64,000 bases of DNA from Chrysomallon squamiferum (GCA_012295275.1 CM022672.1:15686001-15750000), one strand, 5' to 3'; counted from the first letter of the stretch, positions 1-64,000 are shown. Notes: generated by a model from the sequence alone, not told the origin. Program-made: numbers and translations.

Positions 1-348
1 ATAATAATAATAATAATAGAACATAATAACAGATAACAATAAAATACAATAAATGTTTGTTAAGCAATAAAATAAAAAAATAAAGAAATAAATAAATGTA
101 TCAATTTTCCCTTATGGTGATAACAGAATACATTTTGTGTAATGTATTATGCAAATATTCATTCGATGACAAAGAATGTAACTGCGTCTGTTGTAACTGT
201 AAATTACAAATTAAAATTCAGTATCAAATCTCTGCCTATATGTACATATATAATACATTATTAGTATTATTACTTGTCGTTGTTATTATTAATATTATTA
301 TTACTACCTTCATCATAATCATCATCGTCAACACTGAACTAGTATACT

Positions 349-1071
349 TTAATTTGAGCTAACATTTTCTTCATTTTTACGACCTGTTTCATTTTTCTCG
401 GAATCACTTGTTACATCCGACGCAGAAGAAGATAGGTTCGGTTCACATCCAGAATAATGTTTCTTCCAGTCAAAATGACTTTCAAATGCTTCCCCACAGT
501 TTTCACATTTGTATGGCTTAATTTTATAATGACCATTCATGTGCTCCTGGAGATGTTCTGTTTTCCAAAATGTCTGTCCACAGTTCGGCTCCTGACATCG
601 GTATCTTGGTAACGTCTCGTCTTCTTGGCGTCGTTTTTGTGATTCCGACTGTTCGGACTGCACTTGTTTGCCCTCTGCTGCCTTCACAGACGATTTCATC
701 CTGTTGACCGTGTTTGGATTTACCTGTTGAGGAGGAGAAGGGGGAGAGGAAGGAGTCAGTGAACAGCTGGAATAAACATTCTGATTATTGAGAACCTGGT
801 AGTACGGATATCCAATGTTCTGGTCATCTTTCATTTCTCCATGTTTCAGTCGCATGTGTCGAGTCAAGTTGGACTTCCACTTGCTGACGTATCCACATTT
901 ATCACAGGAAAATGTCTGACTCAGTGGCGACAACGTCCGCATTAAGGACATAGATGGCGCTGTTTGTATTCGTATCAGATTCTCCTGCTGGGCTTTGAAC
1001 ATTCTCTGTATGCTGCTGAAAGTTTCGTTTCTGCTGTTATCTGTATTCTTATCTGTATGTCTTTCCCTTTC
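349..1071 (-). CDS. Gene A alternative terminal exon A2: zinc-finger cassette (C2H2, then C2H2 + C2HC pair), 240 aa
   Basis: Acceptor tttctctgtag|GAA at 1071, phase 0, in frame with ORF 349..1002 (ERERHTDK...QRMFKAQ). Fingers CDKC..HMRLKH, CQEPNC..HMNGH and CENC..HYSGC. TAA stop at 351..349. Confidence 0.82.
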   Translation of the reverse strand, partial: ERERHTDKNTDNSRNETFSSIQRMFKAQQENLIRIQTAPSMSLMRTLSPLSQTFSCDKCGYVSKWKSNLTRHMRLKHGEMKDDQNIGYPYYQVLNNQNVYSSCSLTPSSPPSPPQQVNPNTVNRMKSSVKAAEGKQVQSEQSESQKRRQEDETLPRYRCQEPNCGQTFWKTEHLQEHMNGHYKIKPYKCENCGEAFESHFDWKKHYSGCEPNLSSSASDVTSDSEKNETGRKNEENVSSN

Positions 1072-1736
1072 CTACAGAGAAATATATATATATATATATA
1101 CAAACAGTGTTACATATATACATACATACATATATATATATATAAAACAGGCACATATATAAAAAAAAACCATTTTATTTCAATATAAAAATTAAGATAT
1201 TACGATGATCACAAAAATATAAATTGATGAGCAAAAATTAATCATTTTTCTGAAAGAACGCACACACAGATATAAGAAATTAACCATCTAGTAATAACAA
1301 TAATAATATATATATATATATATATATATTTTAGAATTATTGTTATATCATTCGATCCAAAATTACTGTGCAAAATATAAAACTGTTTCGAAAACCACTA
1401 TTTCTGTTTATTAAAAGAAGAAATGTAATCAATTATAATGAATCTTCTAAATGTAATAACGCACATTAAAGTTACATTTTTTTATCTTTCTTTATATTAT
1501 CCATCTAATTTTTAAATTATAACTGAAAAAAAAAAATTAAGTATTACATCCTTCTCTATGCTTATGTCACCATCTGGGTAAATTACCTTTTAAGAAATAT
1601 TAAAATCCACATAATATAGTTTCAGAATGCATATTAAGGAGAACAACAACAACAACGAATTTCTTTTTAAAATCTCCACCTTTCAGCGGGCACGTGTATA
1701 ACTTTCCTCTAAACCGTGAACTAATTAATACTTTTA

Positions 1737-2429
1737 CTAGTCGATCAAGTTTTGTATCCAAAGCTGGTCTCCGCTGTCATTTTTCTGAATTGTGACATTT
1801 CCGCTAACGTTTTTGGGTGCGTTGTGAGCACACTTTTTTTTGTGCCTCTCGAGTCCAGAACGCCACGAAAATACAGCACCACACATACACCGATAAGACC
1901 TGTTTATATGCTTTGAGTTTATGTGGTCCAGTAACATGGAGTTACAAGTGTATGATTTATCACACATATCACAGGAATAATTTTTGGGCACGCGATTGGC
2001 TTGAGGTAGCTTTGACAGAGGTAGCTTTGACAGACTTTCTTTTATGAATGACGTTTCACACACCTTTTCCCAGTCCGTTTCGGATATATTTTTGAAATCA
2101 TTGTTGTGTGCTGATTTCATGTGATTAATCAGCTCGGCCATTTGGGAAAACGTATCGTTGCAGTCAGTGCAGTTAATACTGAAATTCTCGTTGTTCGGAG
2201 CCGAAACATCCATCGATAAAGTTAGAACGCTGCTGCACTTAGAACAAAGATTTCCATACGGCTCCTTCTGCACTAGCGCCTGTCTCGGAAATATCTGACC
2301 GCAGTAAGAACATTTAGACTGTGCCAGTGATGCGGTTTGCTGCTGGTCACTCTTATCCCAACCCCACTGACCATCGTGGACCACACGGGTTCTTTCTCTC
2401 GTAGAACGACTTCCAGCCGAAATGTCAAT
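1737..2429 (-). CDS. Gene A alternative terminal exon A1: zinc-finger cassette, 230 aa
   Basis: Branch point CACTAAC, pyrimidine tract cttttcttcttcccag|ATT at 2429, phase 0, in frame with ORF 1737..2474. Fingers CTDC..HMKSAH, CDMC..HINSKH and CMC..HKKKC. TAG stop. Confidence 0.85.
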   Translation of the reverse strand: MDISAGSRSTRERTRVVHDGQWGWDKSDQQQTASLAQSKCSYCGQIFPRQALVQKEPYGNLCSKCSSVLTLSMDVSAPNNENFSINCTDCNDTFSQMAELINHMKSAHNNDFKNISETDWEKVCETSFIKESLSKLPLSKLPQANRVPKNYSCDMCDKSYTCNSMLLDHINSKHINRSYRCMCGAVFSWRSGLERHKKKCAHNAPKNVSGNVTIQKNDSGDQLWIQNLID

Positions 2430-2732
2430 CTGGGAAGAAGAAAAGTGACGTACGTTAGTGTAACCTCCCTCCATGGAGCCCTTTCACCGCTATCCTAAAG
2501 CTATTAACGAAACGCGAAGTTCGTCCGTTTGTCGATATTCGTTCTTTCAGACTTGTGACACAGCCATCTAGGATGGGTTTTGAAAATTATTGACTTTGGT
2601 AAAGATTCAGTCTAAAATTACCAATCCAAGAAGATGGATTTTCTTTTTCAAGGAGTGGGGTAAAAAGATCAACTCATCTTGTGTTCAGCTTTAATGGAAG
2701 CATGGTAAACAATGTTATTGTTATCGTTGTTG

Positions 2733-2776
<44 letters not shown>

Positions 2777-3153
2777 CGCCATTTTTCTTTCAAATAATAG
2801 GTGTATTGATGAATTATTCCAAAATTACTCTGAATCTATCTCAGAATGAAATGAATAATATAATAACCTAATCAGAAATTATAAAAAGGGAAAATATTTC
2901 TGGTTTGCTTTTTGTTGTTGTGATTGTTGTTTTAACTGTAATTCCCAATGGTGGCACAAGCAAAGAACTTCACTAAACTAATAAGATTAAACAGAAACTA
3001 TAACAATATGTAATTTTTTAGGACGATTCATAACAAGCACCATTTATAAGATTTACCAGTGCTGCAAATAATGACTAAATAACTAATTTATAACTTATAT
3101 TATCACGCGTAGTCTTATATATCTGAATAATCAAAATAAAAATCTTTACAGAC

Positions 3154-3437
3154 CTGCATTTGCCTTGACATCAATGCTGACCTTTCCGTACATTCTCGGG
3201 AATCTCCGTGACTGTTTCCTCGTGATGACGTAAGGCTGTCATTCCCGGCATTTCTTTCGGTGTTCTCAAACTGATCTTCTGGCAGGTCGTCTTCAGGGTT
3301 GTCGATCACCATATATGGAACATCATTTTCCTGCTTAATGGACACTGTAAGCGGCATGCGAATACTTTCTTTTTCCACCGAGTCCTGAGTGGCAGAGACT
3401 TCGTTTTCGACTGAGGCATTTGATGTGTTAAGTTTGT
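3154..3437 (-). CDS. Gene A constant coding exon 2 (low-complexity linker with IKQE motif)
   Basis: ttttcag|AC acceptor at 3437 (phase 1), in frame with ORF 3115..3378. Donor ATGCAG|gtctgt after 3154 (phase 0). Motif ESIRMPLTVSIKQEND matches gene B ETIRLPLNVKVKEEND. Confidence 0.8.
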
Positions 3438-3805
3438 CTGAAAATGTGACAGATCGTATAATTATCAGGTATAGAAAAATAGTTAAAATGTCCGGCGTAA
3501 TAATTTAATTCCATTGACATTATTTTCTTAACGTGTGTTGCGCGTATAAAATGTTCGTTATTATTATATAATTTATTTCATCTATTTACTATATATTGCA
3601 TTTATATATCGTTGTTCCTTGTGGCGATATTAAATAGTAATAATTTGTATACATACTAACTAGAATTTAATTAATCAATAAAGCAATTGTTATTATCATT
3701 ATTATTATTATGTTAACATAAAAATTAGAATAACATTTGAAATCAACAGAAAATGAACACAAATTTATATTAATAATACTGACATACATAATACTTTTAA
3801 ATTAC

Positions 3806-4328
3806 CTCGTTTATGTGGAGTTGTGGCATCTGCAATGGAACCGGTTCGTTTCAGAGACTTCGCCTCAGAATGCTGTACATTATGACTTCTACTGGAACCG
3901 AGATTAGTATCAAACAAGGTTGAATTTGAAGATGCGTACTGACGATCGCCAGCGTTCAGAAAGGACTGTTTTGAAACAAATGAATCAGTTTGTCCTCGCT
4001 GATGAATCGTACTCGATGGTGGTTCCTTCTGTCCCCGAAACGATCGATCACGAGGACTGATGTTTTCAACACCTCTGTACCCTGCTGATACTGCGGGACC
4101 TTTTCGGACTGTTTTGAATGCTTTGGTGCAGTAACTTTCACTGATGACGTCTCCTGAACTCTGGACCAGTTCACTAAGGACGTAGCGCTCCTTTTTGCTG
4201 TTATCTATCTCCAAACAAAGATATCCACTAAGTTCTACAGCCTGTTCAAAATTGAGATAATCACGACATAGTTTCTGTACAGAGTCAATGAAACAGGCGA
4301 AAAATTCCACAGAATACTGTTTTTCCAT
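3806..4328 (-). CDS. Gene A constant coding exon 1 (conserved uncharacterised ~76-aa N-terminal domain plus linker)
   Basis: ATG at 4328 just after a ttttttcag acceptor (exon start ~4333). Donor CGAG|gtaat after 3806 (phase 1). 55/76 residues identical to the gene B N-terminus by hand alignment. Confidence 0.88.
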
Positions 4329-4923
4329 ACTGACTGAAAAAAAAGGAATAAAAAAGGTGGGGGTAAATAATAATATCTGTAATAGTAATAATGTTTATAT
4401 ATGTGCTTAATTGTGCTGCACCAAATGTTTTTATCTCTACAATACACAAGATTTTGATACTGATTATTAATATAATATCAGTCAGTCACATTTTTTTTTG
4501 TCATTTTTAAAAAAACTTTTTATACTTTATTTTCAGTTCTTTCCTTTTTATTATTATTACTAATTTTTAAAAATTTTTTTTAAATTACCATCTGCTGCCA
4601 TTGAGAAAAATCAAAATATACGATAAACGACTTTTTATCGATCGTAATGTACATAACATATCACATCACACATACAAATCTGCTAAAACGGAATATCGAA
4701 TCATAGCGTAATAGTTTAATATTATTAGGATGTCAACCCTCTACCCATAAAAGAAATAAAAAGTAGAACAAACACCACTGAAGAAAAATCTCAATTAAAA
4801 AACAATAATAATAATAAAAAAAATAAAAATGGCCACTTACTAATTAAACAATTTAAACCAATATTAATTTGCATGGACGCTAATAAAACAGAAAGTCGAC
4901 CTCCATAATGGCTAAAATCAACA

Positions 4924-4970
<47 letters not shown>
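4924..4970. repeat. (AAT)n microsatellite
   Basis: Seen directly. Similar tracts near 2737-2773, 5917-5955, 23920-23963 and 26480-26520. Confidence 0.9.
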
Positions 4971-4973
<3 letters not shown>

Positions 4974-5147
4974 TTAGTGATGAAATGGAAATTATTATTA
5001 CATTATGTGTGTGTGACTGAAAGCGTCTATTCATTTTGACTTCAGCTAACTTAATGGAATTATATTTATTAGGTAAAACTCATTTACATGAGGTTTTTTC
5101 CCAGAAATATATAGCGTTTTTTGTTGTTGTTTTGTGTTTATTTATTT

Positions 5148-5607: not shown

Positions 5608-5720
5608 GTATATGTTGTAGCTATACTGATAATCAAATGAAAACTGTTAAACGTAGCTCCAAAGAATACAATCGAGCAGCGATCACATTCCCGATCAGTC
5701 AGTCATACGATCTCCAGTAT
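5608..5720 (-). other. Putative non-coding first exon of gene A (5' end approximate)
   Basis: Consensus donor |gtgagta (plus-strand tactcac, 5601..5607) within a locally CpG-enriched stretch upstream of the 4333 acceptor. Confidence 0.45.
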
Positions 5721-5955: not shown

Positions 5956-8243
5956 TGTAATAATAATATTAATAATAAATTATGTAATTTATTAATTTAT
6001 TATTATTATTATTATTATTATTATACAAGTTAATGATTAATTTTACCATGATTCGTGGGAAAAAGTCTGACTGGTTAACCAATCAATTTAGAAAAAAAAA
6101 AAAAAAAAAATTAAAATCTCTTCTCGACCACCTCCGAACTTCTCTTCGTACTATATCATTATCAAGTAATATATAGCCCTAAAACTTGGATTTGTAATAG
6201 CAAGCTAATCAAATAACCACAGAATATAATCGCTGAGTTAGTGATTATTTATAAAGTATGATCGTAATATAAGAGTCTTCATTTAAAAACGAATACTATA
6301 TTACTAGGTTACAAACTATGTATGGTGCATACGTACGAGTATTACTACGAAACAATTTGAAACCAAATAATGAATAGACTAATGTAAAACAGTGTATCTC
6401 ATAAAACAAATACACATGAAAAACAACTGAAAGCTTTTAACCGAGGCATCGTTTCAATAAAATTCTTACTGACAAATGTTAATACTGTTTTCTCACGATA
6501 TATATTTTTAATAAACATCTTTTAATATAAACCTGATTTGTTAATTATAGAAATGTGATAAGAACGCTGATCTGGTAGGTTTCTAGATCGTTCCTCCTCT
6601 TTGACCTTGAACAATTTCCTACTCGTGTGATCGTTACAGAGTATAATATTATATATTCCTATCTGATTTATTCAGACACATTTTCACAATTCCAGTCAGT
6701 GTCTCTATGTATCGGTCTTGTTCCCTGAACATACATACATATATTGGTAGCTATATGGTTATCAGTCAAAATGAATATTAATACTTCATTATTTATTTCC
6801 CCCGTTTTCAGTTTAAGTTTATATACATATAGTTTTTATTTAATTATTCTCGCTGAAGTTTGATTTATTATATTGCTTGATTTTTAAAAGTGAAATTTCA
6901 GAATTTTATTTATTTTGATTTATTTCCTCCCTTTTGCATCTGATCAAATGTAGATCTTGATGGTTTTAGCAGTATAAATTAAAGTAAGTACAGAGAGAAA
7001 AAAAAACACCTTTTGACTTTCATATTTTACTGGTATGATAAATGGAAATAAGTTTTAAAATGTTTACTAGTAAAAAGAAAAATGAATGAATGAATAATAT
7101 TCAATAGCTCAGTCAATACTGACGTTTTTCCAGTTAATGTCTCATTGCTGATTTAAATAGATTTGAACTCATCAGTACTAATCGAAAATGTAGTCCATGT
7201 CTTACTTCACCATAATAAAATAAATGTTAAAAACAAAATATAAATTATATGTAGATTGGTAAACCTGTAACATGTATCTACACTTACCATTAAATTATCT
7301 TTATAATTACTGCTTAATTCTAGTAACAGTCATATCTGCAATTTCTACATAACATGATGGGAGTATACAAAGTTGTTCTCAACATCAAGCATATTTCCTT
7401 TGTGAGCAATCTCCAGGATCATCCATTTTCCACACTATTTATGAAAAACAATGGTTTCTGGTTGTTTGGTACAGATCACATGACTACTGATTTATAAAAC
7501 TGTCCATGAAATAACTGAAATGTTCTCTTCAGATAAAACAAAAAATGTACTATTGATAGCTAATAACAGTTAATATTAAATTGTGTTGTGTTGATATGAA
7601 TGCTGTTGTCTAGGTATCTTTTATAGCTCCATGCACTCTGAACAATATAAAACAAAGACAAAATGAGAATAAATCATTTATTTCATTTTTAAAAGTTTTC
7701 ATTATACCAACATTGGCAACACTCAAGATTGAAGTATGTATATAAATATATATTTGGAAATATTACAGCTGTACATGTTTAGAATTATTAATAACCAAGC
7801 ATAGTGTTTGTACATATTAAAAAAAAATGTGTGTGTATATTTATATATATATTTAATTTCATTTTATATGTATGCTGTACAAATATTTATAAAAATATAA
7901 AATCTACACAAAAAAATCTTGGATTTAATTTGTTTGCAATGATTTTATATCTGAGATTCGTTTTGATAAATGAAGTCAACTTCAAAATTTTGTGAATTCT
8001 TTTTAAATGATGAGATCAGCTGCCGACATTTTCTGTGAATAGGTAACCCTCATGAATCTATGTTGTTGAAAATAAACTATTATTAAACTGTTCTCGTTCT
8101 GAAGTGTTCTACAAAGACACCAGTTAAATGCACACCACTTTTGTGTTCAAGTCATTGTGCATCTAGATCACAGAATTAAACTGACTACTGTCCACATCCT
8201 CAAAACAATGCAGAAGTAATGTATCAGTGTAGTTCCTGAATTT

Positions 8244-11200
8244 TCAGCTATTTTCATGTTGTTCTACAAACTCGGAAAGAGTAGCTGTGTCCACTGGTAT
8301 AATCAAGTGTTCAGCTCCATCATAGTTCTGAAATAAACATTAAATTTTATTTATTTATTTATTTAAAAAAAAATTTTTAATGATTATTATTTTTTAGACT
8401 TGTATCAACTTCTATCTGTACTTTTAACACAGTTTATAATTCTTATACATTTCTAATACTGCAAACATTTTGAAACAGTTGAAGGAAACATTGTCTTACA
8501 TGATTTATTGTCAGACTGGGGAAATATCCATTCACTGCAACATTTTTATCACTAAGAAGCATGAGAAATGAAAGGACCCACTGTTCTCTTTGAAGGACTG
8601 GATTGGGAAATAGCAGAATAACCTAACTGATAGAATGTTTCAGGCCTATACCCTAAGCTCTGAACAACAGACAGTTACCTATTACCAGCACATTAATAAA
8701 TGACTACCTACCTTTTTAGATCTGACAAGTTTGTGGTCTCTGAATTCAGTGAGCTGAGCACGAAGTGTAAGATCACTGTTAACAAGAAATGCTTCCCCAC
8801 ATCTTTGATAGAGATCAGAGAAGGACATTCCTGTAACAAACATTATCATCTTATTAATTTTAAAATCTACATATATATCCATTCAGACCTCTATTTTTAC
8901 ATGCATATAACAACATTTTATTTCAGTAAATAAAACTTAATTGCTAAATTTGATTAATTAAATAATATTAATTTATATATTTATATGTCCCTAAATTTAT
9001 ACAAGCAGTAATATCTTTGATACCCAGATTTCAGCAGATAGAAAAGCACAACAACTAATATTATAACTGCAGGATACTGGAAAAAAATATAATCAAATAC
9101 AACACATCTCAGCCTTGCATTGTTACAGCAAAGCCACAGACCTCCCAGCCCTGATCAAACAACAAACCCAACAGAGGCAGCACAACAAGTTTGCCCTACC
9201 TACATACACAGGATTATCTTTATTTTCTAGCTGGTATTTGGCAAGCAGCATGAAGATTCCTTTAGCGTTTGGTGTCAGACTGCGCATGACATGGATGAGT
9301 GAACTCAACGCAAGGGCTCCTGTCTGCTGTACAAGCAGAGAGTTCTCGTACGACGTCTCTGATGTGTATGCAACATACGTCGTAACATCGTGCCAAATCC
9401 AGTTGAAACGACTGCATTTTGTATTATCCCAAACTGAAATGAAATAACAACACTTAACAAGATGTTTTACTGTTTGTTATTGAAATGTTTCTTAGAGAAC
9501 AGTTATACAAGAGAAAAGTCACTGTCACATGGACTACTCAAATTAATCAATGACGAGGTGTTTTCAGTAAACGTTTTGTTTTCTTACTGTGATCATCTGA
9601 GGTTACTTTATAATTACCTGGATAAGATACTGAAACAACTGTATTATTACCTGTACAAAATACTGAAGTTATTGCACTGTAACCAGTATAAAATTCTCTC
9701 ACCAAGAGGTGCATTAATGTGATCTATGGAAGCTATAATGTGAACTCCACGAATGTTGGCCAGCAGACTGAGAAGTGTTTGTGTCTTCTCTCCACGTAGT
9801 GTCACTCCGTCAATGTTGTGAATTATTAAAAAGAAATCTTCATATTCTGCAACAACACAAACATTAAAATGCTACAGTATTTACATGTTTATGTAGTAAA
9901 AATATTAAAACATAGCAATTGCAGAGTAAAAATATTATAACATATCACTAGCAAAAACTGTTTTAATCACAAGTAGTATAATTAAAGTTAAAATTCAGTT
10001 CATACTGTAAGTAAATGTAATACACACACTCTGACTTAGAAAAGGAAATCAGAATTTATTTTCTTTCTCTATTTAAAAAAAAAAAAAAAATCTGAAATGT
10101 TTTACTTTGATTAGTGTTAATTTAAATTACTTTATTCCTAAACATTTTTAAGGACAAACAGAAAAGATAAAGACAACCTAAACTATTCTAAATTCATCTG
10201 TTCAACATTTACCTCCATCTTCAAAGTGTTTTCTTATCAACTCATATTGCTCAGTTGGGTTTCTATGACTTCCATCGCAGTCAAGAATTTCATCTAATAT
10301 ACAACAGAAAATCTGAAATAATCAAATACTTTTTATCCTGAATACATTCTAAAATATACACTAATTAACAAATGTACGAATGTTGAAATTGGCTTCTAGT
10401 ATTTCTAATAGTCAAAAATTTCATCTATTGTACAACTACAAATCTGAAATAATCAAATAAACTTTATATGCTAAAAAAAAAAATGCTACATATCAAAATA
10501 AAAATTCTATTTGATAAAGATATCTAAAATAAAATATATATTGATAAAAGATAAATAAATAAAAAAACAAACAAACATGATGTAATATACAAAACTAAGC
10601 AATGGTTACATTAAGAATAAAATCAGTAAATTAATTAAATACAGTTGAGCATTCTAAAAATTCAAATGGTTTTGTCAGTCTCATGGTATTTTTTCCTCAC
10701 ATCACTTGAACACTTTTTACTTCAGCAGAGTAACTAATTTTAAACTATTAACTATAACATAACATTTAAATAAATCACAATTTTTCATAATTTCTTTTTT
10801 TTAAATACATACATGATCAATGAAGATAGCTGACTAAACAAATTATGACTTATACCTTTCTAATACAAGTTTATATCTCAATTCAACATTAAAATTTTTA
10901 AAGCAAATCACTGGATGAAGTGAATAAATTAAACATTGTCTTACATGTTTTATTGTCAGACTGGGGAAATATCCATTCACTACAACATGGGAGAAATCTT
11001 TGAGAAACTGTTTTCGAAAATCTTCTAGTAGACCTCGTTTTGATCCAAGGCCATAAAGCAGAATGTTAAAGTGATTGCTGGGGAAAAAGTTTAAAAAAAT
11101 TTAAAACTGGATGCTCATGAAGAATATTTTCCAATCAATTTATTCCCCAAGCATTACAGCAAGTACTAGTCAATATTAATGGCTATTAATGACTGATAAT

Positions 11201-13393
11201 ACCACAAGCAAATTCATAATTTTTGTATTTCAGAACACAAATTTAATTTCTGCATAATATAAAAAAAATGGAAATGCAATCAGAATAGCAAACTCATTTT
11301 TAATAGCCTAAATAATATATTTTAAGAAAGATTTAATGGTCTAGCAGTGATATAATATGTTAACAAATATGAAAATGCGTTAAATTGTAAATGGATTATA
11401 AAGTCACATTTTTTCTGTACACATCTTTGTGTGCATGCAGTTTGTACTAAGTAAATTTTGGAACTAAAAAACATCTTTATTATTGTAATGATACTCTTAC
11501 TGAGGACAGAAAAAAGCACCATCATTATATATGCAACATGATCTTAGGGTAATTGACATAAAATTTCTCTTACAAATATTTAACGAGATAGTACATACCA
11601 CATTAAGACCTGCAACCAATATTGAGAAACCTACCACATTAGAAACATCCAGTTAGAGAAAAAAGCTCTGTTTTCTGACAACACATCTTGCAGTTCCTTC
11701 CTGTGCCCACATGCTACATTCTTCAACAATGTTGTCAGAGATTCGTGATCCATTTTTGGAGTTTTCAGTTTTGACAGTGTATTTTCTGAAGTCTGTACAG
11801 CACCAGAGTGTAAATCAAAGTAATCTTCTGCATTGGTTGACTAAAAGATGATAATAAAATAAGCAATATGTAAATATTGTTTTCATTTAAAATGGTGATT
11901 TACAGAACCTCTTTGATCCACCATCACCACATTTAATGTGATATTTTTAATTACTGGCCTAATGCTATGTTTTCTTTTACAATACTTTAACATCTGTAAT
12001 TCAATAATAAAGGTAAGAGTAAATCAATAAAAATATGAAATTACATGTATATTATTATACTAATATTTAACAAAGAAAGCAGTATTTAAGTGTGAAACCA
12101 TTTAGAAAGTAGCAAAGAAGAATTGTGACTACAGAAACTTTGTCACTGCCCTTAGGCAGAGATAAAATCAAAACATTATCATTTTAGTTGACTTATGTGT
12201 TGATTATGTTTTGGGGAGGAGAAGCTGAATTTTTTTTTAAAATGCTGTGTCATGATGTATTAATCATAAACTAACATGTTCAAAGTCTTTAGCTGGTTTT
12301 CTTCTTGTTGGTGGTGTGTCACAAGCTTCATCACTGTCTGAGCTGAGTGAATCTTCACTCTCAGAAACACCATCATCATCTGACAAACATTTATATACAT
12401 CATCATCTGACAAACATTTATATACATCATCATCTGTCAAACTTTTACATACATCATCATCTGTCAAACGTTTATATAGATCATCATCTGCCAAACTTTT
12501 ATATACATCATCATCTGACAAACATTTATATACATCATCATCTGCCAAATATTTATATACATCATCATCTGCCAAACATTTATATATATCATCATCTGAC
12601 AAACTTTTATATAGATCATCATCTTATTTACAAACATTTTAAATCACAATAATATGTAAATAACTTTATTTTGGTATATTTTGTACTAATACACTGTTGA
12701 TTCTCAACAAAAAAATTATTATTTTTTTTTTTTAATAAAAAGCTTTTTCCATCAATTTTTGCATTACAACTTGAAATGAAATTAATAATACACACACACA
12801 TATATATTATTTACCAAATATAAAGACACATTATTATTATAACAGGTTTTGGGGTTTTAAAAAAAAACCTATCTCATGTGCAAAGTAAACCAAATCAAAC
12901 CTGACATGTTTCTTTTTCGTAAGCGGTAAGGTGTTGTGGTTTCAGGTTTTCTTTGTGATTTCCTTACAGGACTTATCTCCCTTTGCTCTTTTGCAGTCTT
13001 CTCCGATTCTAAAATACAATAAAACAAATGAAATAACCAATGAACATTTTTTTGTTGTTTTAACACATTTCAAGTATCCCTATAAACAATTATTAGATGT
13101 AGTTTTTGGTTCAACATTAGATTAACTGAACAGACAACTATTTCTATTTCTCATTATTTAACTGAATAGATTATTTATATCTATCTTTAGTACAGTGAAT
13201 CTGCTTGGACAGTAGATTACTTAACAGATTCTGCTAATAGCACTGTATTCTGCTAGTTTGCACTCTGTACTGTATTTGAGATATAATAATCAAAAATATA
13301 TATATATTTTTTTTTCATTACATAGAAAAAGGGTAAGAAAATATATAGAAATTTATTGCTAAATATCTGAATAACAAGCTCGAGATTCTATTC

Positions 13394-13424
<31 letters not shown>

Positions 13425-16400
13425 AGCAATATGAAAGTGGGTAAGCAACACAGTATCTAACTCTTTGATCTATAGTGAAACCTCTCCCATTAGGACTGTC
13501 ACCTAACTGGAATATCCTCACAACCAAATAATTCCTGTAGTTCCATGATTTATCAGGTACTAAAATCTCTTACTCGGTCACAACTCTATTTGGTTGTGAA
13601 AAGTTTCCTGTGAAATCTATGAGCATTTTGTTGAAAAATGTTCAGAAATTCTGTTACATATTCACTGGTTTGCATGTACCTAGATGAATAAATATGTCTG
13701 ATAACAATAAATTGAAGTTTACCTTTGGCTGTCTTATTAACTTTAGATTTCTTTGAAGATGATGATGTTCCTCTTGAAGATAATCTGTTTGGAGACCTGC
13801 ATTCTTCAGCTAATGTTTGAAAAAAAAAAAGTACCCATGTGAAATTATGTTAACGTGATATTTCTCAAAACTATTTTAAAGAGTACCTATAGCTATATGG
13901 ATAAATGGTTTGATAAAATAACATTTAAGTATCATACTTCCAAGTTATACTGCTTAGGATGACTTTTCATCACTCCTAACAAAGTATGACAGTAAAATGA
14001 TACTGCTATAAAAGATGTAAATGCAGCCACATTTGAGGCAGGCTGATAGCTGTATTTTTCTGACGAACTTTACAGCAAACTTTGTACCTAATGACATCTG
14101 AAATGGAAGCACCCAGATATTTTTTATATTGTAATCTTTCGTTGTTATCTTCCTTATTAATTAGAATTAGAAAGACAAAAAAAAGACACAAAAGAACCTA
14201 ACCTTAAAACATCTTGACAGTATGCAGAATAGGTTTCAGACTATTCCTTTCTAATATCATATGTAGATTTTAATGATCTGAAGAATAATTGCTTTTCTTC
14301 CCCCCTTTTTAATATACAGAACTTCTAATATTAATGAATTTAAAATTAGATGGTATTTTGTTTTTCATCAGAATTACAATCTATGAGGTTCAAAGATAAA
14401 CACTGAAATGCTTAGTATTTACCAATAAGCACAATAAAATAATATGCAAATGATAAATTTATTTCTCCATTTTGTTGTAAAACAAAGTGTTAGACCTAGT
14501 TTTTACCTTTGCTCTAATAATAACTTGTCCACTTTAAATATTTTACAGCATTTACAATTATAAAGATAATTTATTTTCTACTTAGAAATACAAAAGGTGA
14601 ATCAGGTCAACATCAAATGTAATTACATTTATAAAGGAATAACTAAAAATGCTGGTGCAGAATTTCAGTAGGTGTAAAGATACATGATGCTAATTCATTT
14701 AACAAATTAAGGTCACCAGAACAGCTATATATACCACAGATGAAACAAAACTTCCAGAAAAATGTTTGTACTTAAATAACAAAAGCATGAAATTGATGAA
14801 TAATTGATAAAATGTGGAAAGATGTCTTATTTTGGGGTTTTTTAAGGCAGCAACAATAAAACATAAATTGTACACTGAGATGTTTCAGGTAAGCTTGGTT
14901 ACGGACTACTCTATTATATCAATTTATAACTTATAACAATAAGAGAATGCTTACCTTTCAAAGCCATTAATCCAGATTTCTTTGGGGTTTTGAACTGGAA
15001 AACATTACATCCTAGTACAGCATTGTCAACCAAACTTCCGACATCCAGAACTGAAACAAAAACTAAATAATGAATAAGAATTTAAACGTAGCATTACCAG
15101 GCACCAGTTTAATTAAAATGGAAATATTTAAAAAACGGGATTTTTCCAATGACTTTTGGTTCAAATTAAATGAAAACAAAAAAATATCAGAACTAAAATG
15201 AAAAATTTATACTGAAAACATAACAGCAATAAGAAATGAATCCATGTTAAGATGTATAACTGGCAAGTTACTTGACGGATTACTTGCCTATATTGATGGT
15301 GTCACAGGCTACATACACAAATCAACTGTGCAAAGGCGTGTGAAAGCAGGTAGCCTTCACAACTATGCAAAAAACTTAAAAAGAAATTTTCACAAAACAG
15401 TTCAGACTCTCAAATTCAGCTTCTGATAGTGTGAAAGTAAATCGTAATGTTACATGTTTTAATTCCATTGGAAAATTTGAAAAAACCCCAGTAAAGAACA
15501 ATATAAGAATCATTGCAATACAGCATTGTGGTTGGTTATGCAGGAGAGACCTATGTCTGACTACCAGTCCCTGATTGCCTTACAGAAGAATGGGGTGCAG
15601 TTTATAAGTGGGAAGGACAATGACCACTCATGTAGGGACTTTGTTCACAATTCTGCCCAAGCAATGAGAGATGATATCAAACAGATGATACAATGTGCCA
15701 ACTTTATGTCAGTTGAACAAGATGGCAGAGAAGCTTGCAAAGTTAAGGACGAAAAAGAATGAATTTATGTGAAGATTATAGCAAGGGGCCAGCCTGTTGA
15801 ACTATTATTTAAATGTCAAAAAATGAGCAATTTCAGTGGAGTAATTGCATAGAGTGTCAAACCTGCTATAGATGATGCTTTCCATGATTATGACTTTACT
15901 GGTGAAAAGAACACATAATGTTTTATTTGTGCTTGTGCAGATGGAGAAAATGTTAATGTTGGTAAACTGAATGGTGCTCTAACTGTAATGAAAACTGAAG
16001 GCAGGGAATGGTTGCTAATAAATCATTGCTCTGCACACAGAATTGAACTGGCTGTCAAAGATGCATTAGTTGAAATTGGTGACTTTGTAAAAGTGGATGA
16101 CATGATGCTGAATCTGTTTATGTTTTTCAAGACTAGTGACATGTGTTGGAAAATATTGCTACTTATTGCAGAACAGTTAGGGGTTCTAGTACAACATATA
16201 CTGAAAGCTTCTGGTACACGATTTCAAATTCATAACTATAGAGCCATCAAATCTATGATCATAAACTTTTTGTTTCTATGTTTACTTGCAGAAAATATGA
16301 TACAGGCTTCAAGCAAAGTTTGCGAAAGGCTAAACTAATGGAGTACCTCAACACATGACTGACTTACGGGTATCTGGCATATATGCATCTTTACAGACTC

Positions 16401-19400
16401 ACTCTGAAACAAACTGCCCATTTGTCAGAATGCAACTCCATTAGATGAATTCAATACACTTGCTGCTGTTGATAGTGATCTGCCATTTCCAGTTCCTCTC
16501 AGCAAAGATGGTCTCGAGGCAACCAACCTTACAGCAAGTGTAAGATTCAAACAAGACAATCAGCTGAGTAACAAGCAAAAACAACAAGCTGAAAAAGTTG
16601 TTACTACAATAAAAGAAAAGTTTGTTCTCAACAATGTTCACCAGCAAAAAAAGACTGTGAAACATATAAGAACAAAACTGATCCCAGCAATTTTAACACA
16701 GCTGATTAAATGACTGGATTCTTTCAATGACCCTATCTTCAAGGCAATGAAAATAGCTGATCACATTCATTGGGATATATCTGATCTAAAATATGGCTTG
16801 GAACAAATTAAACTGTTATCTAAACATTTTGCTAAAAGCCTAGCTTACCACAACTTTGCCCTAGATATGGCTATTGCTTGATACAATGAGAACAGTGATA
16901 TGGATAAATAACAAATATTATACTGTTCACCATGCATATGAGAATTGGAGGATTCTTGTAAAAAACCCAAAGTTTTAACATTGAAATACTCCAGGTTCTT
17001 GAAAACAATAAGCTAGACAGACTTTCAGAAGCTCAACATCTATCAGTAGTGTCATCCAAGTTGTTTTACAATGGATACCATTTCACTGTGACATACCTGG
17101 AAATCAGAATGAAGACAGACTGGCAAAACTAGGTGCAGGTAATGAACAGGAAGATAACTGGGTGTCATATGAAGAATTGAAATCACATATTAAATCTCTC
17201 TATAGACTTACCAAATGAACCGATGACTATCACCTATGAACAAGTTACCATTTTCCAATTAAGGACTGGACATAACAGGCTCAACCAGCAATATGCATTA
17301 GAGATTTTGTATGGTATCTTCTTTTATGCAGTGTAAAATTTCGTCATCCAAGGGCCCATTAACATCTTGCCTAACAGGCCTAACACCTGCATTTCAACCT
17401 GCCCTGTTACTGACACAAAAATATTTCTTGAACAATGCACGATGCTGAGTATATATGCCACATATGTGAAACAGAACATGAAGACCATTACCCGAGGCAG
17501 GTTGTGATCATCAAGAAAAGTCTTGAACCCCTGGGGATCGCCCTTATTATCATTAAAGCGGAGTTTGTTCATCTATACAATGATGTTTGAAGCACAGCAA
17601 TCATTTCCCTTTGCACCTCCTTCATATTCCTTGAGTGCTGATCTAGCTTTTGTGGCTATGGAGTCCAAAGTGTGCAAATGACAGTTTAACTCGTTTAAAG
17701 TCTTGGCCCAGGAAACATTCACTAGCTGTATTGCAGCATGGTTTGCTGCACACCGATCAGTAAGACTGTTGGTTATGTTTGAAATTAATCCCTGGCATAT
17801 GGTTTGATAGTCTTAATCAAAGAAATGACAGTACACTATGGCAACGTTATCAACTGAATCACAGATAGTGATAGTCATTGGCTGTACCTTCAGGTAACTG
17901 ATCGGCAGCAACAACATAGCAATCAGCATGGGTGGTGATGTGTATGCTGTTTAAATGAATGCCATCTTGTGTCGTGACATCGAAGTCAGTTTATGAGTCG
18001 TTGTTTAAAATAGCTTCTGCAGTTTAAAGATCACTTATTGCCCCAAGTTCTCTTATTATTGCTTCTACTGTGGTCTTGTGTGGAACAACAGTTATGGTTG
18101 TTCCAGAGCGAATGGCAAACTTTCTAATCAGAGATGGTATATTGTTCATTGGTACTTGAACAACAATAGCATTGAAAACTTTCATTCTCATTTCAGGAGA
18201 ATAAGTCCTTCCATCAGATTTGGTTTGTTTAACAAAACCCTCCAGCTCTTTTACCCAGTCTTTTAGCTTTAGCTTGTCATCCTGGAGCTGGAGGATTTCC
18301 TCCTCCCTTTCTGCCAGTTTCGTTTCCAATGCTTCCACTCTTTCATCATCAGTCTGGGATGCAGTTTAATGCAGTTTTTATTTTATCGTATTTCTTAATT
18401 CACTGGTGTTTCTTTTTTAAAGTGGATATAATTTTTGTAGCTTTTCAGATCTTTGTCAAGAGCAGAAGAGTCCAACTGCAATTTTACTTTAGACAACTGC
18501 ACTTCTTTTCTCTTGATTTTTTTATTTAGTCTCTTTACTGATTCATACCTTCTCTGTTTGCGCTTGGCCATCATATTCCTTACCTTAATCCAGTTCTGAC
18601 ATTTTAAGAGATCCTGCTTGGATTGGGGGATATTCTTTTGCACTTCAAGCTAGGCTCCTGTCAGATTTCAATATAAATTCACATATAGCAAAATAAAATG
18701 TTGTTCTACCTTAGATTTTCCTCCGATATCGAAATTGACCAATTTTAACATGTTGAATACGAGAACATTTTTCGAACTGTCCTCTGAAACAAACCAATTG
18801 ACCGAACTGAAAAATTGGAAAATGAGTGAGTATACGGGAGTTTCCCACTAATTATACCATCAGGGATAACCGAAACTCCCAGCCCCTGACCAATGAGAAG
18901 CAATTTATGCAAAGACACCACTCGCCATTGGGAGACCCAGGTCACATGGATATAGCACAAAATGGCGGACGCAGTTCAGGCAGTAATACACATACCTACA
19001 GTTTAAAAATAGCATTGTCATAAATGTATGAACAATCCAGACATCTTCTGATGGTACAATACATCATGAGCAACACATTTACGACTAGTCTAACTATTTC
19101 TCAACTTTCCTAAATTTTGAATAACTAAACCAGTGGATCAATGGGGGTGCAAAATATCTATCTGCAACATCTACTCAATAAAAGCATGCAACTGAAACTT
19201 CTTTTAATATTATATTATTTTTATTATCTCTAAAATAAACTGCCTACAACAAACATTATTTTAAGTCCCACAGCGTGCCCAGTTTTAAAGAACAATCCAG
19301 ATACCTTCTGATGGTCCAATCACGTGATCTTCATCACTGCTGTCATCAACCACGTCAGTTTTTTTAGACCTGATTGCCTGTGTAGAGTAAGTAATCTTTT

Positions 19401-20087: not shown

Positions 20088-21536
20088 GTTTTATGAAAAG
20101 CTCTTATTTGAAGAAGATATATAAAACCATACGGAAAACAATTACGGTTTCAGCTAAAACTCGGAATGTAATTTGAAACAATCCGTTGAAGGATAAAAAA
20201 AGCGAAATTAAATATTTGTAAATATAGTATTTTGTCTATTCCTTCTCGGCCGAGGTTTAACTCATATTCTTTTCTTGTTTTGTTACTATTATTTTTTTTT
20301 TTTTTAAAAAAAAAAAGGATGTAATATTCTGACATTAAAAAAAAAATTGACTTTCAAGAGAAAAATACTTTCATATATTTCTGTTGTAAAGTTTTTGTAT
20401 AACGTGAGGAAAAATCTGTCAGAAGTACTGTCATTACTTATTTTATAAAGTATAAATTGGTTTTCTTAAATTTTTTTTCTTAATACACTTTCTAGCTGCT
20501 AGAGCGATTGGTAGCGTTTCTCAGCTCATCATCAAGATAACCTGCAGTATTTTTAAAAAAATTATTTGTTTTTATTGCATTTCTGTTTTTAAAACTGTTT
20601 GAGGGTTTAAGGAAAATCATTAATTAATCTGTATTTAAGCATGAGATACCAGAATATATTTGTTATTGGCACAATCTTATCTGGACCCCAAGATACAGAT
20701 ATTTATTATGGTTCTTTACTTGATTTCTTCAGTTGTATGGACTGATTTGCTGTTCATCAGGTCTGTCCCAACCCATCTTGCAAAGACACCATGAAATTTG
20801 AAACAAGACTGGGCAAACAGAAGAGATGGGAAGACAATATCAGATTTGGAAAAAATGACACCCTATTTTTAATTTTTGTTTTGTATAGTTGCTTTGATAA
20901 AAAAAAAAAAAATTAAAAGTACTTTTGAAAATACGGTTTATTCATGCAATATTGTTACATAGATATATATTAACATATAGCATCACTCAATCACTTGGTT
21001 TTGCTTAACAAAGTACAGTATTATATCAGAGTTTAGTATTACACATATACACATACATACACACACATATACGTACATACATACATATATATGCACACAC
21101 ACAGAGTCAATTCAAACATAGCACAAGATACATATGTGTGTGTGTGAGTATATATATATATATATTGCGCAAGGACTTTAAGTCTAAACAAAGTGAAAGG
21201 AACCTGAGATACATTCATGGTGTTTAAGTATCTTTACATTATGCTTGATGATTTTTTATCAGTCCATTACAATAAGGTAATCAATTAAGTGCTGCTTACG
21301 AAAACAATTCGTAATTGAACCTGTGACTTCCCACTGAGCAGTTCTGTTACAAGCAGATATATTTCTTATAAATACCAGTGAAAATATCACTAACTTTCAT
21401 TAGAAAATTCTCCTGTCCCTGAACCCATCCCTGGCGATCCCAGAGATCGGATCCGAGATAGGCGTGCCTGAACCTTGAATTGGATGTGGGCACGTAAAAA
21501 GAGTTTCCATACCATACCATTAGAAAACTGTTCACG

Positions 21537-21850
21537 ATGGAAGTCATAACTAGCAACAAAGGTGGTCAACAGTTAATATTCAATGGTTTCATATACACGA
21601 AACAGATAACTAAGCCTCATAACATAAGGTGGCGATGTGTACAACGCACTACTGACTGTAAGGCAACCCTAACCACAACCTTGGTTATTGATGATCAAAA
21701 GTTAATTGCAGCTCATAACCATGATCCATCGGAAACAAAAGTGGCAGATGTCAAGTGCTGTTCTCAGATGAAGAGCAAGCCAAGAAAAGTTTCGACAAGC
21801 CAAGCCAGACAGTAACTGAAGCCATGAGTCAAACTGAAGGAATTGCCAGG
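21537..21850 (+). mobile_element. MULE/Mutator-like transposase 5' remnant with FLYWCH zinc finger
   Basis: MEVITSNKGGQQLIFNGFIYTK...RWRCVQR..CKATL....HNHD fits the FLYWCH pattern. The frame shifts and truncates shortly after. Confidence 0.78.
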
Positions 21851-36025: not shown

Positions 36026-36786
36026 CAGGCTCTAACATTGGAATGCGTAAATAGAGGCCCCATTTAGGTGGATAGCGTAAATAAAATACAGATACCTATT
36101 TGACATTTGTTTTTAAACCTAATTATTGTTTAATCAGTAATACAATTATATTTTACCATAACGACGTACATATGCAAACGCATTCATTAAATTAAATATA
36201 ATAATTAATCAAAATTTAAATTTATGAAACCATGGAAATGCTTTGTATTCTAGTATTTGTATTTTGTATTTGAAAAGGACATTTTGAAACAGATTTCTCT
36301 ATTTATTTTTATCATCTAATTTAAACAATTTATGAATTTTAATGTTTTATACATCTGTTGTATGTTGTTGTTCCGAGATCACAACCTGTGGCATTAAAAA
36401 AAGCACATTACAGTTGGTTAGTTTGTTTACGTAACAGTGTTATTCACTTAAGGTAATGAGTAATTATACATCTGAGAAATATTTCCCCACAATCTGTGCA
36501 ACTTACAAATAATCCTACCCCTATCACTAACTTCATCACAACCCAAACCATAACTAATCACAGGTATAACCAAAAGAAAACCCTAACTCTAACCATAATC
36601 CTAACCCTGATATTGTTCTCTAAAATTTAAATCATAACTCTCACCCTATATCTGAAGTTGCTATTATGATTATGCTGTTGTATGTTCAAAATGTTAAAAC
36701 ATTTGTGCATGATATGTTATCTTTATTCGATTTATAATAATAAATGATATTAAGTATGGATTATTGTATTTCTGTTTCAGGAGACA

Positions 36787-37255
36787 ATGGACAAACAATA
36801 TTCTGTGAAATTTTTTGCCTCCCTCATAGAAAGTATACAGAAAGTGTGCAGAGATTATCTTGACTTTGAACAGGCAGTAGACATCAGTGGCTACCTGTGT
36901 GTTGAGATAGACAGCTATCGGAAAGAGAGATATGTTCTTAGTGAACTTATTCAAAACACAGGAGACATTGTCAGTGAAAGCTACTGCACGAAAGCTTTTA
37001 AAACATTGAAAAAGTTTCCCAGTGATGTTGGAGGAATTGAAAACAGTGAACTCACACGGTTGTCAGCATCAGCAGAGACCTCAAACATCAGCAGGATAAA
37101 CTCGCGTAGATGTGAATCTTCCAGCAGAACATCTGGATACAATACAAGCAACACAGAGTCTGGTTTCTGTACTAATCAAAGGAATCCTTATAAGTTGTTA
37201 CCACCAGGCCTAAAAAGAACGATACCGTGGCAGAATCGGTCATCACCAAAAAGAG
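36787..37255 (+). CDS. Gene B constant coding exon 1 (conserved uncharacterised N-terminal domain plus linker)
   Basis: ORF 36787... Acceptor at 36780. Donor AAGAG|gtatat after 37255 (phase 1), at the same KR-G position as in gene A. Confidence 0.88.
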
Positions 37256-37545: not shown

Positions 37546-37976
37546 AGAGAAATGAATCATACAGAATCAGCCAGGAAAATAGTGAAGACTATTCCAATGT
37601 TCATCATTCCGGCAGCAATAATTATTTACCCGAGCCAGCTTCTGACAGTATTGTGCTACCTGTAAATACACTGGATAACACCAGTTCATCAGCATCAGTT
37701 GCAGAAAACAGTACTTGTAACACTGTTCCCAGTGTGAATGAAACTATTCGCTTACCTCTCAATGTCAAAGTTAAAGAAGAGAATGATAGTTCTTTTATGG
37801 ATGAGCAGGGTTATGAAAATACTAGGATGTACAGTGATAAAAATTCACAAAATTCATATATTCATGCACAGACTGAAAACAACGAAACATTGCCAACGTC
37901 ATCATCATTATCGCCAGGGGACCAAGAAAATGCTCACACTGCCAGAAAGATGAAAGGTCATGTGAAACTGTTTCAG
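37546..37976 (+). CDS. Gene B constant coding exon 2 (S/N/E-rich linker, VKEE motif)
   Basis: Acceptor tttatttcag|AG (phase 1), open and in frame with ORF 37653... Donor TTTCAG|gtaatt after 37976 (phase 0). The constant region totals 300 aa. Confidence 0.85.
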
Positions 37977-41213: not shown

Positions 41214-41714
41214 GTCACCACAGATTCCCAGATGATTTCTTCAGACTCACATACACCACCACCACCTTCAGGTATTACACCCCAGGGCTCTCAGGTAATA
41301 CAACAGATGATGCTGAGCAGTGAAGGAGAGACAGTTGTCAGTAAAACGAGAAGTTGTTTCGAATGCCAGAAATGTTTTTATACATTTAGAGACTTGGCCC
41401 GGTACAAAGAACATCTGCAGATATATCATCCAGAAATCTTTTACTGCGAAATCTGTGGCAGGAGTTTTGATGATGAGCAGTGTTTTTCAGACCACATCTG
41501 TGTTGTGAACCATGAAGGAAAGAGAAAGTTTCCTTGTCCTTACGGAGCTTGTTGCAGAAGCTTTGCCAGACAATCTCATTTGATGGACCATGTGAACACT
41601 CATTCAGGCCTCAAACCATATATTTGTCCCAACTGCCATAAGCATTTCACAGGAAAGTATATTTTTAACCGCCATTCGAAGACTTGTTGCAAGAAAGAGG
41701 AGAATAATGAATAA
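41214..41714 (+). CDS. Gene B alternative terminal exon B1: four zinc fingers, 166 aa
   Basis: Branch TACTGAC plus ttctcccatgcag|GTC, phase 0. Fingers CQKC..HLQIYH, CEIC..H, CPYGAC..HVNTH-SGLKPY and CPNC..HSKTC. TAA stop. Confidence 0.85.
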   Translation, partial: VTTDSQMISSDSHTPPPPSGITPQGSQVIQQMMLSSEGETVVSKTRSCFECQKCFYTFRDLARYKEHLQIYHPEIFYCEICGRSFDDEQCFSDHICVVNHEGKRKFPCPYGACCRSFARQSHLMDHVNTHSGLKPYICPNCHKHFTGKYIFNRHSKTCCKKEENNE

Positions 41715-43739: not shown

Positions 43740-44192
43740 GTATCTTTGGAGCCCCAAAAGTCACCTTCGTCAGAAACCTTACCAAACTGCAACAAACTTG
43801 CAAGTCCCTTGCCCAACATTGGCAGCACAACTGAAGAACAAAGAGGTTGTTTTCAGTGCAAGAAATGTGTGTCTGTTTTCAAATACAGGCAGGAACGTAA
43901 AGAACACATGGAAATGTGCCATCAGGAGACTTGTTACTGTAACATTTGTGGCCGACAGTACAAGTACAAACGGTCACTGTGGGAACACACACTGATCCAC
44001 CAGGGAAAGAAAAAATTCATTTGTCCTTACAAAGACTGCGGAAGAAGGTTTGCCAGAAGGGTTCACATGGTGGATCATTTGAACACCCACTCGGGCGTAA
44101 AGCCTTACGTGTGTCAACAGTGCACTAAACAATTTGGAAACAAATACACTTTGCTGAAACATGTAAAAGTGTGCGAAGGGAGAATAAACTGA
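43740..44192 (+). CDS. Gene B alternative terminal exon B2: four zinc fingers, 150 aa
   Basis: ccttctcccatgcag|GTA, phase 0. Fingers CKKC..HMEMCH, CNIC..HTLIH, CPYKDC..HLNTH-SGVKPY and CQQC..HVKVC. TGA stop. Confidence 0.85.
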   Translation, partial: VSLEPQKSPSSETLPNCNKLASPLPNIGSTTEEQRGCFQCKKCVSVFKYRQERKEHMEMCHQETCYCNICGRQYKYKRSLWEHTLIHQGKKKFICPYKDCGRRFARRVHMVDHLNTHSGVKPYVCQQCTKQFGNKYTLLKHVKVCEGRIN

Positions 44193-49929: not shown

Positions 49930-50220
49930 GAATTCCTGCATTCCAAAAAAGAATTTCGACCAATGCTAGAGATCCCACCAGGTGAGCTGGATCCATTACT
50001 AGGATTGTTTTTTCTCAGCCTTCAGAAGGAAAATGGTAAAGAATATGAGCCGTACTACCTGAAAAACATTTGTTCCATACTTGGCCGTTACTTTCGCCTC
50101 AATAATTACAAACCAAGTCTGAAAAGTGAAGCTTTCTCACGATCTCGTCAAATTCTGCAAGCCAAAGTGAATCGTCTTATACAAATAAGAAGAGCTGAGA
50201 CACTGGAGAGAAAGCAGTAG
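49930..50220 (+). CDS. Gene B alternative terminal exon B5: Crypton/DUF3504-type (ZMYM/QRICH1/KIAA1958-like) N-terminal helical region, 96 aa
   Basis: tttatttcag|GAA, phase 0. EIPPGELDPLLGLFFLSLQKENGKEYEP..LK....LGRYF....F..SRQILQAK resembles the conserved ELD.LL..FF..VRK.DG.EYEP.SL block. No catalytic recombinase half follows. TAG stop. Confidence 0.8.
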   Translation, partial: EFLHSKKEFRPMLEIPPGELDPLLGLFFLSLQKENGKEYEPYYLKNICSILGRYFRLNNYKPSLKSEAFSRSRQILQAKVNRLIQIRRAETLERKQ

Positions 50221-63783: not shown

Positions 63784-64000
63784 CTGAAAAGTGTAGAAAC
63801 AAAACAAAAAACATTTATTATTTTTAACAAGTGTAGCACTGTGGCAAACATTATGAATTGTTATCTCCCTTGCATAAATTCACATTGGTATTTTATTTTT
63901 ATGTAAACTTAAAAAATTAATTTAAATAAAATAAAAAATAAAAATTAATAATTATTAAAAAATATTTCCAATAAAACATGAATATAAAAAATTTATTATA

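Follow-up and report, generated by a model that had tools for sequence, protein, structure and literature searches.

A gastropod gene family with a lola-like layout of alternative last exons on a non-BTB domain

The closest described systems are lola and mod(mdg4), Drosophila genes of the Tramtrack group of BTB proteins, in which common N-terminal exons are combined with many alternative 3' exons encoding C2H2 or other DNA-binding domains, according to two accounts (PMC11426971, PMC6237743). One of them reports TTK-type BTB proteins to be absent from molluscs (PMC11426971). This layout of a constant domain and swappable DNA-binding exons has been described mainly for arthropod BTB genes. The expanded, clustered C2H2 families of the ZAD-, KRAB-, and SCAN-zinc-finger genes carry at their N-terminus a small module restricted to particular lineages. 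Domesticated Crypton genes, which carry DUF3504, include KIAA1958, KCTD1, ZMYM2-4, QRICH1, and WOC, and KIAA1958 has two isoforms with alternative DUF3504 exons, as described (PMC3212892; for the genes also PMC13465315). The locus considered here is a window of 64,000 nucleotides (nt) from Chrysomallon squamiferum, the scaly-foot snail (GCA_012295275.1 CM022672.1:15686001-15750000), which holds two members of a family with such a layout, gene A on the minus strand and gene B on the plus strand. The layout is real, expressed in gene A, and conserved. Gene A joins a constant front end, at one phase-0 donor, to one or the other of two last exons that encode zinc fingers; a similar choice among five endings is likely in gene B. 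It is highly probable that ordinary cis-splicing accounts for both sets, so that each gene would give rise to several predicted DNA-binding regulators.

The ATG of gene A, at 4328, lies 5 nt past an acceptor at 4333 (TTTCAG/TCAGT-ATG). The coding exon from 4328 to 3806 comprises 523 nt and ends at a GT donor in phase 1, after the residues HKR, with a split codon for Asp. The linker exon from 3437 to 3154 adds 284 nt; because the two total 807 nt, the donor at 3154 is in phase 0. This is the arrangement that had been described in the original prediction, made from the sequence alone, including the start just past an acceptor. Its placing of a phase-1 intron after KR was likewise correct, but the residue at the split codon is Asp in gene A and Glu in gene B, and the glycine that it named comes from reading on into the intron. 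By their consensus, the motifs KR and IKQE may act as nuclear-import and SUMO sites. Downstream are two stop-terminated cassettes, A1 (2429 to 1737, 230 amino acids) and A2 (1071 to 349, 240 amino acids). As had been proposed, both are open in phase 0 and encode zinc fingers, here of the C2H2 type with Pfam matches to zf-C2H2 at expectation values (E) of 3.2e-8 and 2.7e-10, respectively. Each lies behind a pyrimidine-rich AG acceptor.

Evidence for splicing comes from RNA contigs of four runs (X1-X4) of one study, aligned to window positions 1-5050. These contigs demonstrate presence, not absence, and they cannot separate cis- from trans-splicing or reveal rare chimeras. For run X4, two joints and one loose end at repeats were dropped from the alignment. 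The joint 3806>3437 is found in all four runs. The two junctions that the original prediction had singled out for checking, 3154>2429 and 3154>1071, are both present, in two and three of the four runs. The second is bridged by records X2-8, X3-14, and X4-18. It is missing from the joint table but clear in the piece table, where the linker continues to 1070 at consecutive record positions, the shift of one base arising because both sides offer a G. Contig X3-14 joins first coding exon, linker, and A2, and passes over A1. The contigs also carry variants in the linker exon, at 3241 and 3262 among others. Support for 3154>2429 (runs X1 and X2) is weaker because the short side of this joint has only 30 letters. 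Overall, the contigs show gene A spliced onto both A1 and A2. The contrary finding named in the original prediction, A1 and A2 together in one mRNA, was not encountered: no joint between them occurs in the four runs, in which positions 1184-1521 are without cover, and contigs cannot prove absence. Continuation of the array past the left edge of the window, also raised there, gained no support, given that the four runs contain no loose end at donor 3154 and that the orthologue described below was found with two isoforms only, the contigs again being no proof.

At the other end of gene A, runs X1-X3 have loose ends of 81, 101, and 30 letters behind 4333. The first letters of these match position 5608, beside a GTGAGT donor, and a 5' non-coding exon of gene A therefore ends there. 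A possible optional exon at 4681-4590 on the minus strand has an upstream ATG in frame with the acceptor at 4333 and would add six residues. One contig spans 4401-4649 unspliced, and no joint of this candidate was seen. Contigs of 1.0-1.6 kilobases in runs X2-X4, together with loose ends at 4108-4148 in all four runs, point to another expressed paralogue outside the window.

Gene B repeats the layout of gene A, with five downstream candidates for last exons (Table 1). Its ATG, at 36787, is 6 nt past the acceptor, the phase-1 intron follows PKR with a split codon for Glu, and the phase-0 donor is at 37976. The orthologue from the vent snail Gigantopelta aegis, to which the nearest named proteins belong, breaks at identical residues at the end of the linker. 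The layout is predicted from sequence, and splicing onto all five endings is likely. Zinc fingers occur in only four of the seven cassettes of the window (A1, A2, B1, and B2). B2 is likely a tandem duplicate of B1. B3, which instead encodes a pipsqueak-type helix-turn-helix (HTH_psq), has 49% identity to a G. aegis tail over 43 amino acids. B4 has no Pfam match and no BLAST hit among 277 proteins; G. aegis has basic tails that resemble it when judged by eye. B5 has no Pfam match either, and is 46% identical to DUF3504 proteins from other molluscs. Only two copies of the N-terminal domain, those of A and B, were found by a six-frame profile scan of the window.

In agreement with the original prediction that all seven cassettes are in phase 0, the best-scoring AG upstream of the domain is a phase-0 acceptor in every one. 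The score was a simple ad hoc one and the seven cassettes had been chosen beforehand. By chance, seven of seven would be expected with a probability of 0.0005 if phases were equally frequent, and of about 0.005 if phase 0 made up half of introns, which is about its share of all introns. AATAAA-type signals also follow each B cassette, weak evidence in AT-rich DNA. The ending would likely be chosen by acceptors in competition, with a coupling to polyadenylation past each cassette, and the products would have a common front domain and differ in their predicted DNA-reading end. Recursive splicing was considered for B1-B3, which start with GT after the AG, and rejected, since acceptors often have the context AG/GT, and it is missing from four of the seven cassettes. 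The 10-mer CAAAATGGCG, which we take to be a YY1-like motif, occurs in gene orientation near the 5' ends of A (5477, minus) and B (36016, plus), and once elsewhere (18958, plus).

Conservation of the layout is clearest in G. aegis. The orthologue of gene A, LOC121384052, has protein isoforms X1 and X2 that share 284 residues and diverge exactly at the junction of gene A. The X1 tail is orthologous to A2 (61% identical) and the X2 tail to A1 (55%); identity to gene A is 97% in the N-terminal domain and 45% in the linker. The orthologue of gene B, LOC121383525, is 83% identical in the N-terminal domain and has identical junction residues. A and B themselves have 72% identity in this domain, and no A cassette forms an orthologous pair with a B cassette, the 24-31% identity extending over fingers only.

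That A and B belong to a gene family, as had been suggested, was borne out by a G. aegis set of 95 proteins (93 named so and two assigned through an identical constant region), which falls into 22 constant-region groups. Fifteen groups have alternative tails, with 2-19 proteins each. The last constant residue is Q, K, or E in all fifteen, which is consistent with a phase-0 NAG/GT donor. Among 16 unnamed genomic open reading frames (ORFs) of close relatives, 13 end soon after K-K-G or K-R-G and three after a variant, which fits conservation of the phase-1 intron. A scan of metagenomes turned up no genomic loci of relatives, and intron phases in relatives were inferred from proteins. The named G. 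aegis members are clustered, all of them listing one common longest contig. Tails in the family include C2H2, HTH_psq, BEN, Tc5-HTH, CENP-B, FLYWCH, and DUF3504. In the G. aegis group P0064-P0073, seven of nine isoforms have about 89 further common residues past the junction before they diverge, which suggests either that one cassette was recently duplicated in tandem or that there is a second level of choice.

When 1.84 billion representatives were searched with a profile, 276 matched at E<=0.001, and 150 of these were listed. Thirty were checked by name, and every named one is a mollusc: Pomacea, Littorina, Babylonia, Nucella, Batillaria, Lymnaea, Patella, Lottia, Haliotis, Gigantopelta, and the bivalve Solemya. 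Members also occur in Aplysia, Physella, Bulinus, Bradybaena, and Plakobranchus. Sets with a common front and different tails are found in Pomacea, Littorina, Babylonia, Aplysia, Patella, and Haliotis, with one Pomacea locus reaching isoform X26. In the distant sets P0159/P0162, P0166/P0169/P0177, P0168/P0271, and P0190/P0198, the first tail residues are G, D, and V, whose codons start with G, a hint that distant subfamilies may join in phase 1.

Table 1. Exons and candidate last exons of genes A and B, numbered from the first letter of the window.
Feature	Position	Strand	Remarks
Gene A 5' non-coding exon	5608..5708	minus	3' end exact, 5' extent approximate; from RNA loose ends
Gene A first coding exon	3806..4333	minus	ATG 4328; N-terminal domain of ~75 amino acids at about 4101-4328; ends at KR; phase-1 donor
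Gene A linker exon	3154..3437	minus	family motif IRMPL..IKQE; phase-0 donor 3154
Cassette A1, C2H2 alternative last exon	1737..2429	minus	230 amino acids; AATAAA 325 nt past stop
Cassette A2, C2H2 alternative last exon	349..1071	minus	240 amino acids; RNA reaches at least position 108
Gene B first coding exon	36781..37255	plus	predicted; ATG 36787; N-terminal domain as in A; phase-1 donor after KR
Gene B linker exon	37546..37976	plus	ends in first half of Crypton core-binding helix; phase-0 donor
Cassette B1, C2H2	41214..41714	plus	166 amino acids; predicted last exon
Cassette B2, C2H2	43740..44192	plus	150 amino acids; predicted last exon; 44% identity to B1
Cassette B3, pipsqueak-type helix-turn-helix	44984..45154	plus	56 amino acids; predicted last exon; HTH_psq E 9e-6
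Cassette B4, basic helix	47096..47323	plus	75 amino acids; weakest candidate
Cassette B5, remainder of Crypton-type core-binding domain	49930..50220	plus	96 amino acids; stops before DUF3504

The N-terminal domain of about 75 residues matches no consistent Pfam family in alignments of 24 and 67 members. No BTB family is among the Pfam matches at E<=1 of either alignment, and no ZAD, KRAB, or SCAN domain is among those of the cassettes or the aligned front domains. The AlphaFold2 model from the 67-row alignment has one helix (residues 5-24) and strands at 30-41, 45-56, and 61-72 of antiparallel type, with a mean predicted local distance difference test score of 84 and a predicted template modelling score of 0.70. 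Searches with the domain gave no PDB sequence match at E<=10, nothing convincing in the ESM Atlas, and no Foldseek match at E<=0.001. The best VIA-align hit among 48,161 chains had a Z of 4.7 (root-mean-square deviation 3.2 over 65 residues), with none at Z>=5. The absence of fold matches to a model does not establish a new fold, and the domain may belong to an unlisted family. By its position and conservation, and by analogy with BTB in lola, it is likely a multimerization or cofactor module.

Gene B provides a link to Crypton recombinases. The region upstream of DUF3504, which we take to be the "core-binding" part, is 38% identical between gene B and the relative P0080 over 95 amino acids (E 1e-17). 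A profile built from eight other core-binding regions of Cryptons spans the junction of gene B, scoring 101.8 bits on the joined sequence and 77.9 bits on B5 alone, and the last 14 constant residues of B score above all 182 background windows. DUF3504 (PF12012) has no match in any cassette of the window and is present in the relatives P0007, P0011, P0080, and P0240. Abalone, Pomacea, and Solemya have DUF3504 relatives that bear the N-terminal domain and in which the helix split by the junction is intact. These comparisons suggest that a domesticated transposon gene had an intron that turned into a socket for new endings. The ancestral gene of this subfamily likely fused the N-terminal domain to a domesticated Crypton recombinase, and the phase-0 intron inside the first Crypton helix would then have been the site where new last exons were gained.

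A tree of the domain (60 rows) does not place A and B as sisters: B joins the orthologue that it has in G. aegis (100/85) and A its own (98/71). The grouping of A with abalone DUF3504 genes (91/89) is less firm. Since A and B each group with their own orthologue, their split and the two shared intron positions predate the split from the G. aegis lineage. The original prediction that the architecture predates the A/B duplication thus holds for the shared intron positions, which appear to be older. The arrays themselves may or may not be as old: no A cassette is orthologous to a B cassette, the B orthologue in G. aegis was found with one DUF3504 ending only, and those abalone genes that are closest to A have DUF3504 endings.

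A different history, possible but rather unlikely, would make the cassette layout ancestral to the whole domain family, with Crypton as one captured cassette and the split of the helix secondary. Every gastropod group sampled has distant members with alternative tails, whose junctions are without the Crypton helix, and the tail of the B orthologue in G. aegis carries a complete helix of its own. In contrast, the relatives with the N-terminal domain fused to an unbroken helix speak against it, and several distant sets hint, at the protein level, at a phase-1 junction and hence at separate origins. It is an alternative for the history alone, and the splicing mechanism is compatible with it.

Several observations weigh against the account of constant front ends, multiple cis-spliced endings, and a Crypton socket. 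RNA support covers gene A only, from contigs of that single study, the junctions of gene B being predicted from sequence, and the table row for the short A1 joint reads "between: not known". RefSeq isoforms are computed models. The B orthologue LOC121383525 was found with a single DUF3504 ending, not five, and B1, searched against proteins 91-291 residues long, gave no match at E 1e-25. The constant end of A lacks the Crypton helix, with 12 of 151 background windows scoring as high, and the helix is clear in only three scored constant ends and weaker in about four more. Some distant subfamilies seem, from the protein-level hint, to join in another phase, which bears on generalizing the helix history. 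Support in the domain tree, which is based on 78 columns, is rough, its bootstrap not having converged. DNA binding and a regulatory role are predicted solely from domain content.

Some of these points would fit gene A as described and a gene B with one or two products, its downstream ORFs being remnants or independent small genes. B4 is without a homologue and B5 stops short of DUF3504. This alternative is improbable, however, because all five cassettes have phase-0 best acceptors and frames open to a stop, the helix that starts in the constant exon goes on in B5, and three tails, one with DUF3504, one with C2H2, and one of another kind, belong to a G. aegis paralogue whose constant ending is identical. 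Trans-splicing of the variable exons, be it inside one gene or across the paralogues A and B, after the model of mod(mdg4) and lola, is very improbable and the suggestion was not supported: all seven acceptors are phase-compatible with both donors, the paralogues are clustered, and the layout is like that of loci for which trans-splicing is established (PMC6237743, PMC11426971), but every cassette lies collinearly downstream of its own constant exons on the same strand, so that cis-splicing is sufficient and trans-splicing unneeded, no DNA similarity between A and B exists at E<0.005 outside the N-domain exon, and the G. aegis models keep constant regions with their own tails, although genome-based models could not show chimeras.

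Other features of the window include an ORC2 gene between A and B (about 7000-14200, minus; WHD_ORC2 E 2.5e-18, RecA-like_ORC2 E 2.2e-22), with a tandem peptide repeat at 12264-12623. Several ORF fragments at 15400-18700 look by eye like decayed DNA-transposon sequence; the one scanned had no Pfam match. A FLYWCH ORF at 21498-21815 (plus, E 1.1e-12) is isolated. It was rejected as an opposite-strand cassette because it has its own ATG and no good acceptor, and is more likely a transposon fragment. An exon-like ORF at 63553-63879 (minus) has no Pfam match at E 0.001; it resembles an ectonucleotidase.

No description of this snail family was found in the literature, of which subscription journals were thinly covered and supplements were outside the scope. 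The available parts of a cephalopod C2H2 paper (PMC12513265) and of the scaly-foot snail genome paper (PMC7142155) do not mention such a domain or such splicing in the terms used. Family members now carry the names of unrelated genes ("KRAB and SCAN-like", "BTB-like"), and the domain defined here offers a new basis for their annotation. Counts of one isoform per gene understate the diversity of mollusc transcription factors, and the family offers a traceable path from transposon domestication to exon arrays. Its occurrence on an unnamed non-BTB domain across gastropods makes convergence testable, namely whether a multimerizing front end favors arrays. This significance is tempered by the derivation of function from domain content. 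A more far-reaching proposal, which is tentative and somewhat short of an even chance, is that gastropods independently built a lola-type system from an undescribed multimerization domain and a Crypton intron socket that took up unrelated DNA-binding exons, with about twenty duplications in vent snails and heteromers of paralogues and isoforms that would yield a combinatorial code of more than 100 products from one cluster.

Compared with known systems, the snail family shares with the ZAD, KRAB, and SCAN genes a small lineage-restricted N-terminal module on expanded, clustered C2H2 proteins. Unlike theirs, its module has no Pfam match, and its diversity would come largely from alternative last exons within each gene. 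As in domesticated Crypton genes, many members end in DUF3504, and upstream core-binding homology is present, in gene B only. In contrast to them, the N-terminal domain is different, the snail alternatives are unrelated DNA-binding folds, the junction of gene B cuts the core-binding helix, gene A has no Crypton part, and B5 ends before DUF3504. The family is most like lola and mod(mdg4) in that constant exons lead to mutually exclusive DNA-binding last exons, as seen in gene A and predicted for gene B, and the repertoire of tails overlaps (C2H2, pipsqueak helix-turn-helix, and, in a Pomacea member, FLYWCH). It differs from them in that all seven cassettes share the strand of the constant exons to which they belong, with no opposite-strand variable exons within the window, and in that about twenty paralogues with this layout occur in one genome. 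Because its front domain has no BTB match, the snail family is not filed with lola and mod(mdg4); it represents a lola-like layout on a non-BTB domain.

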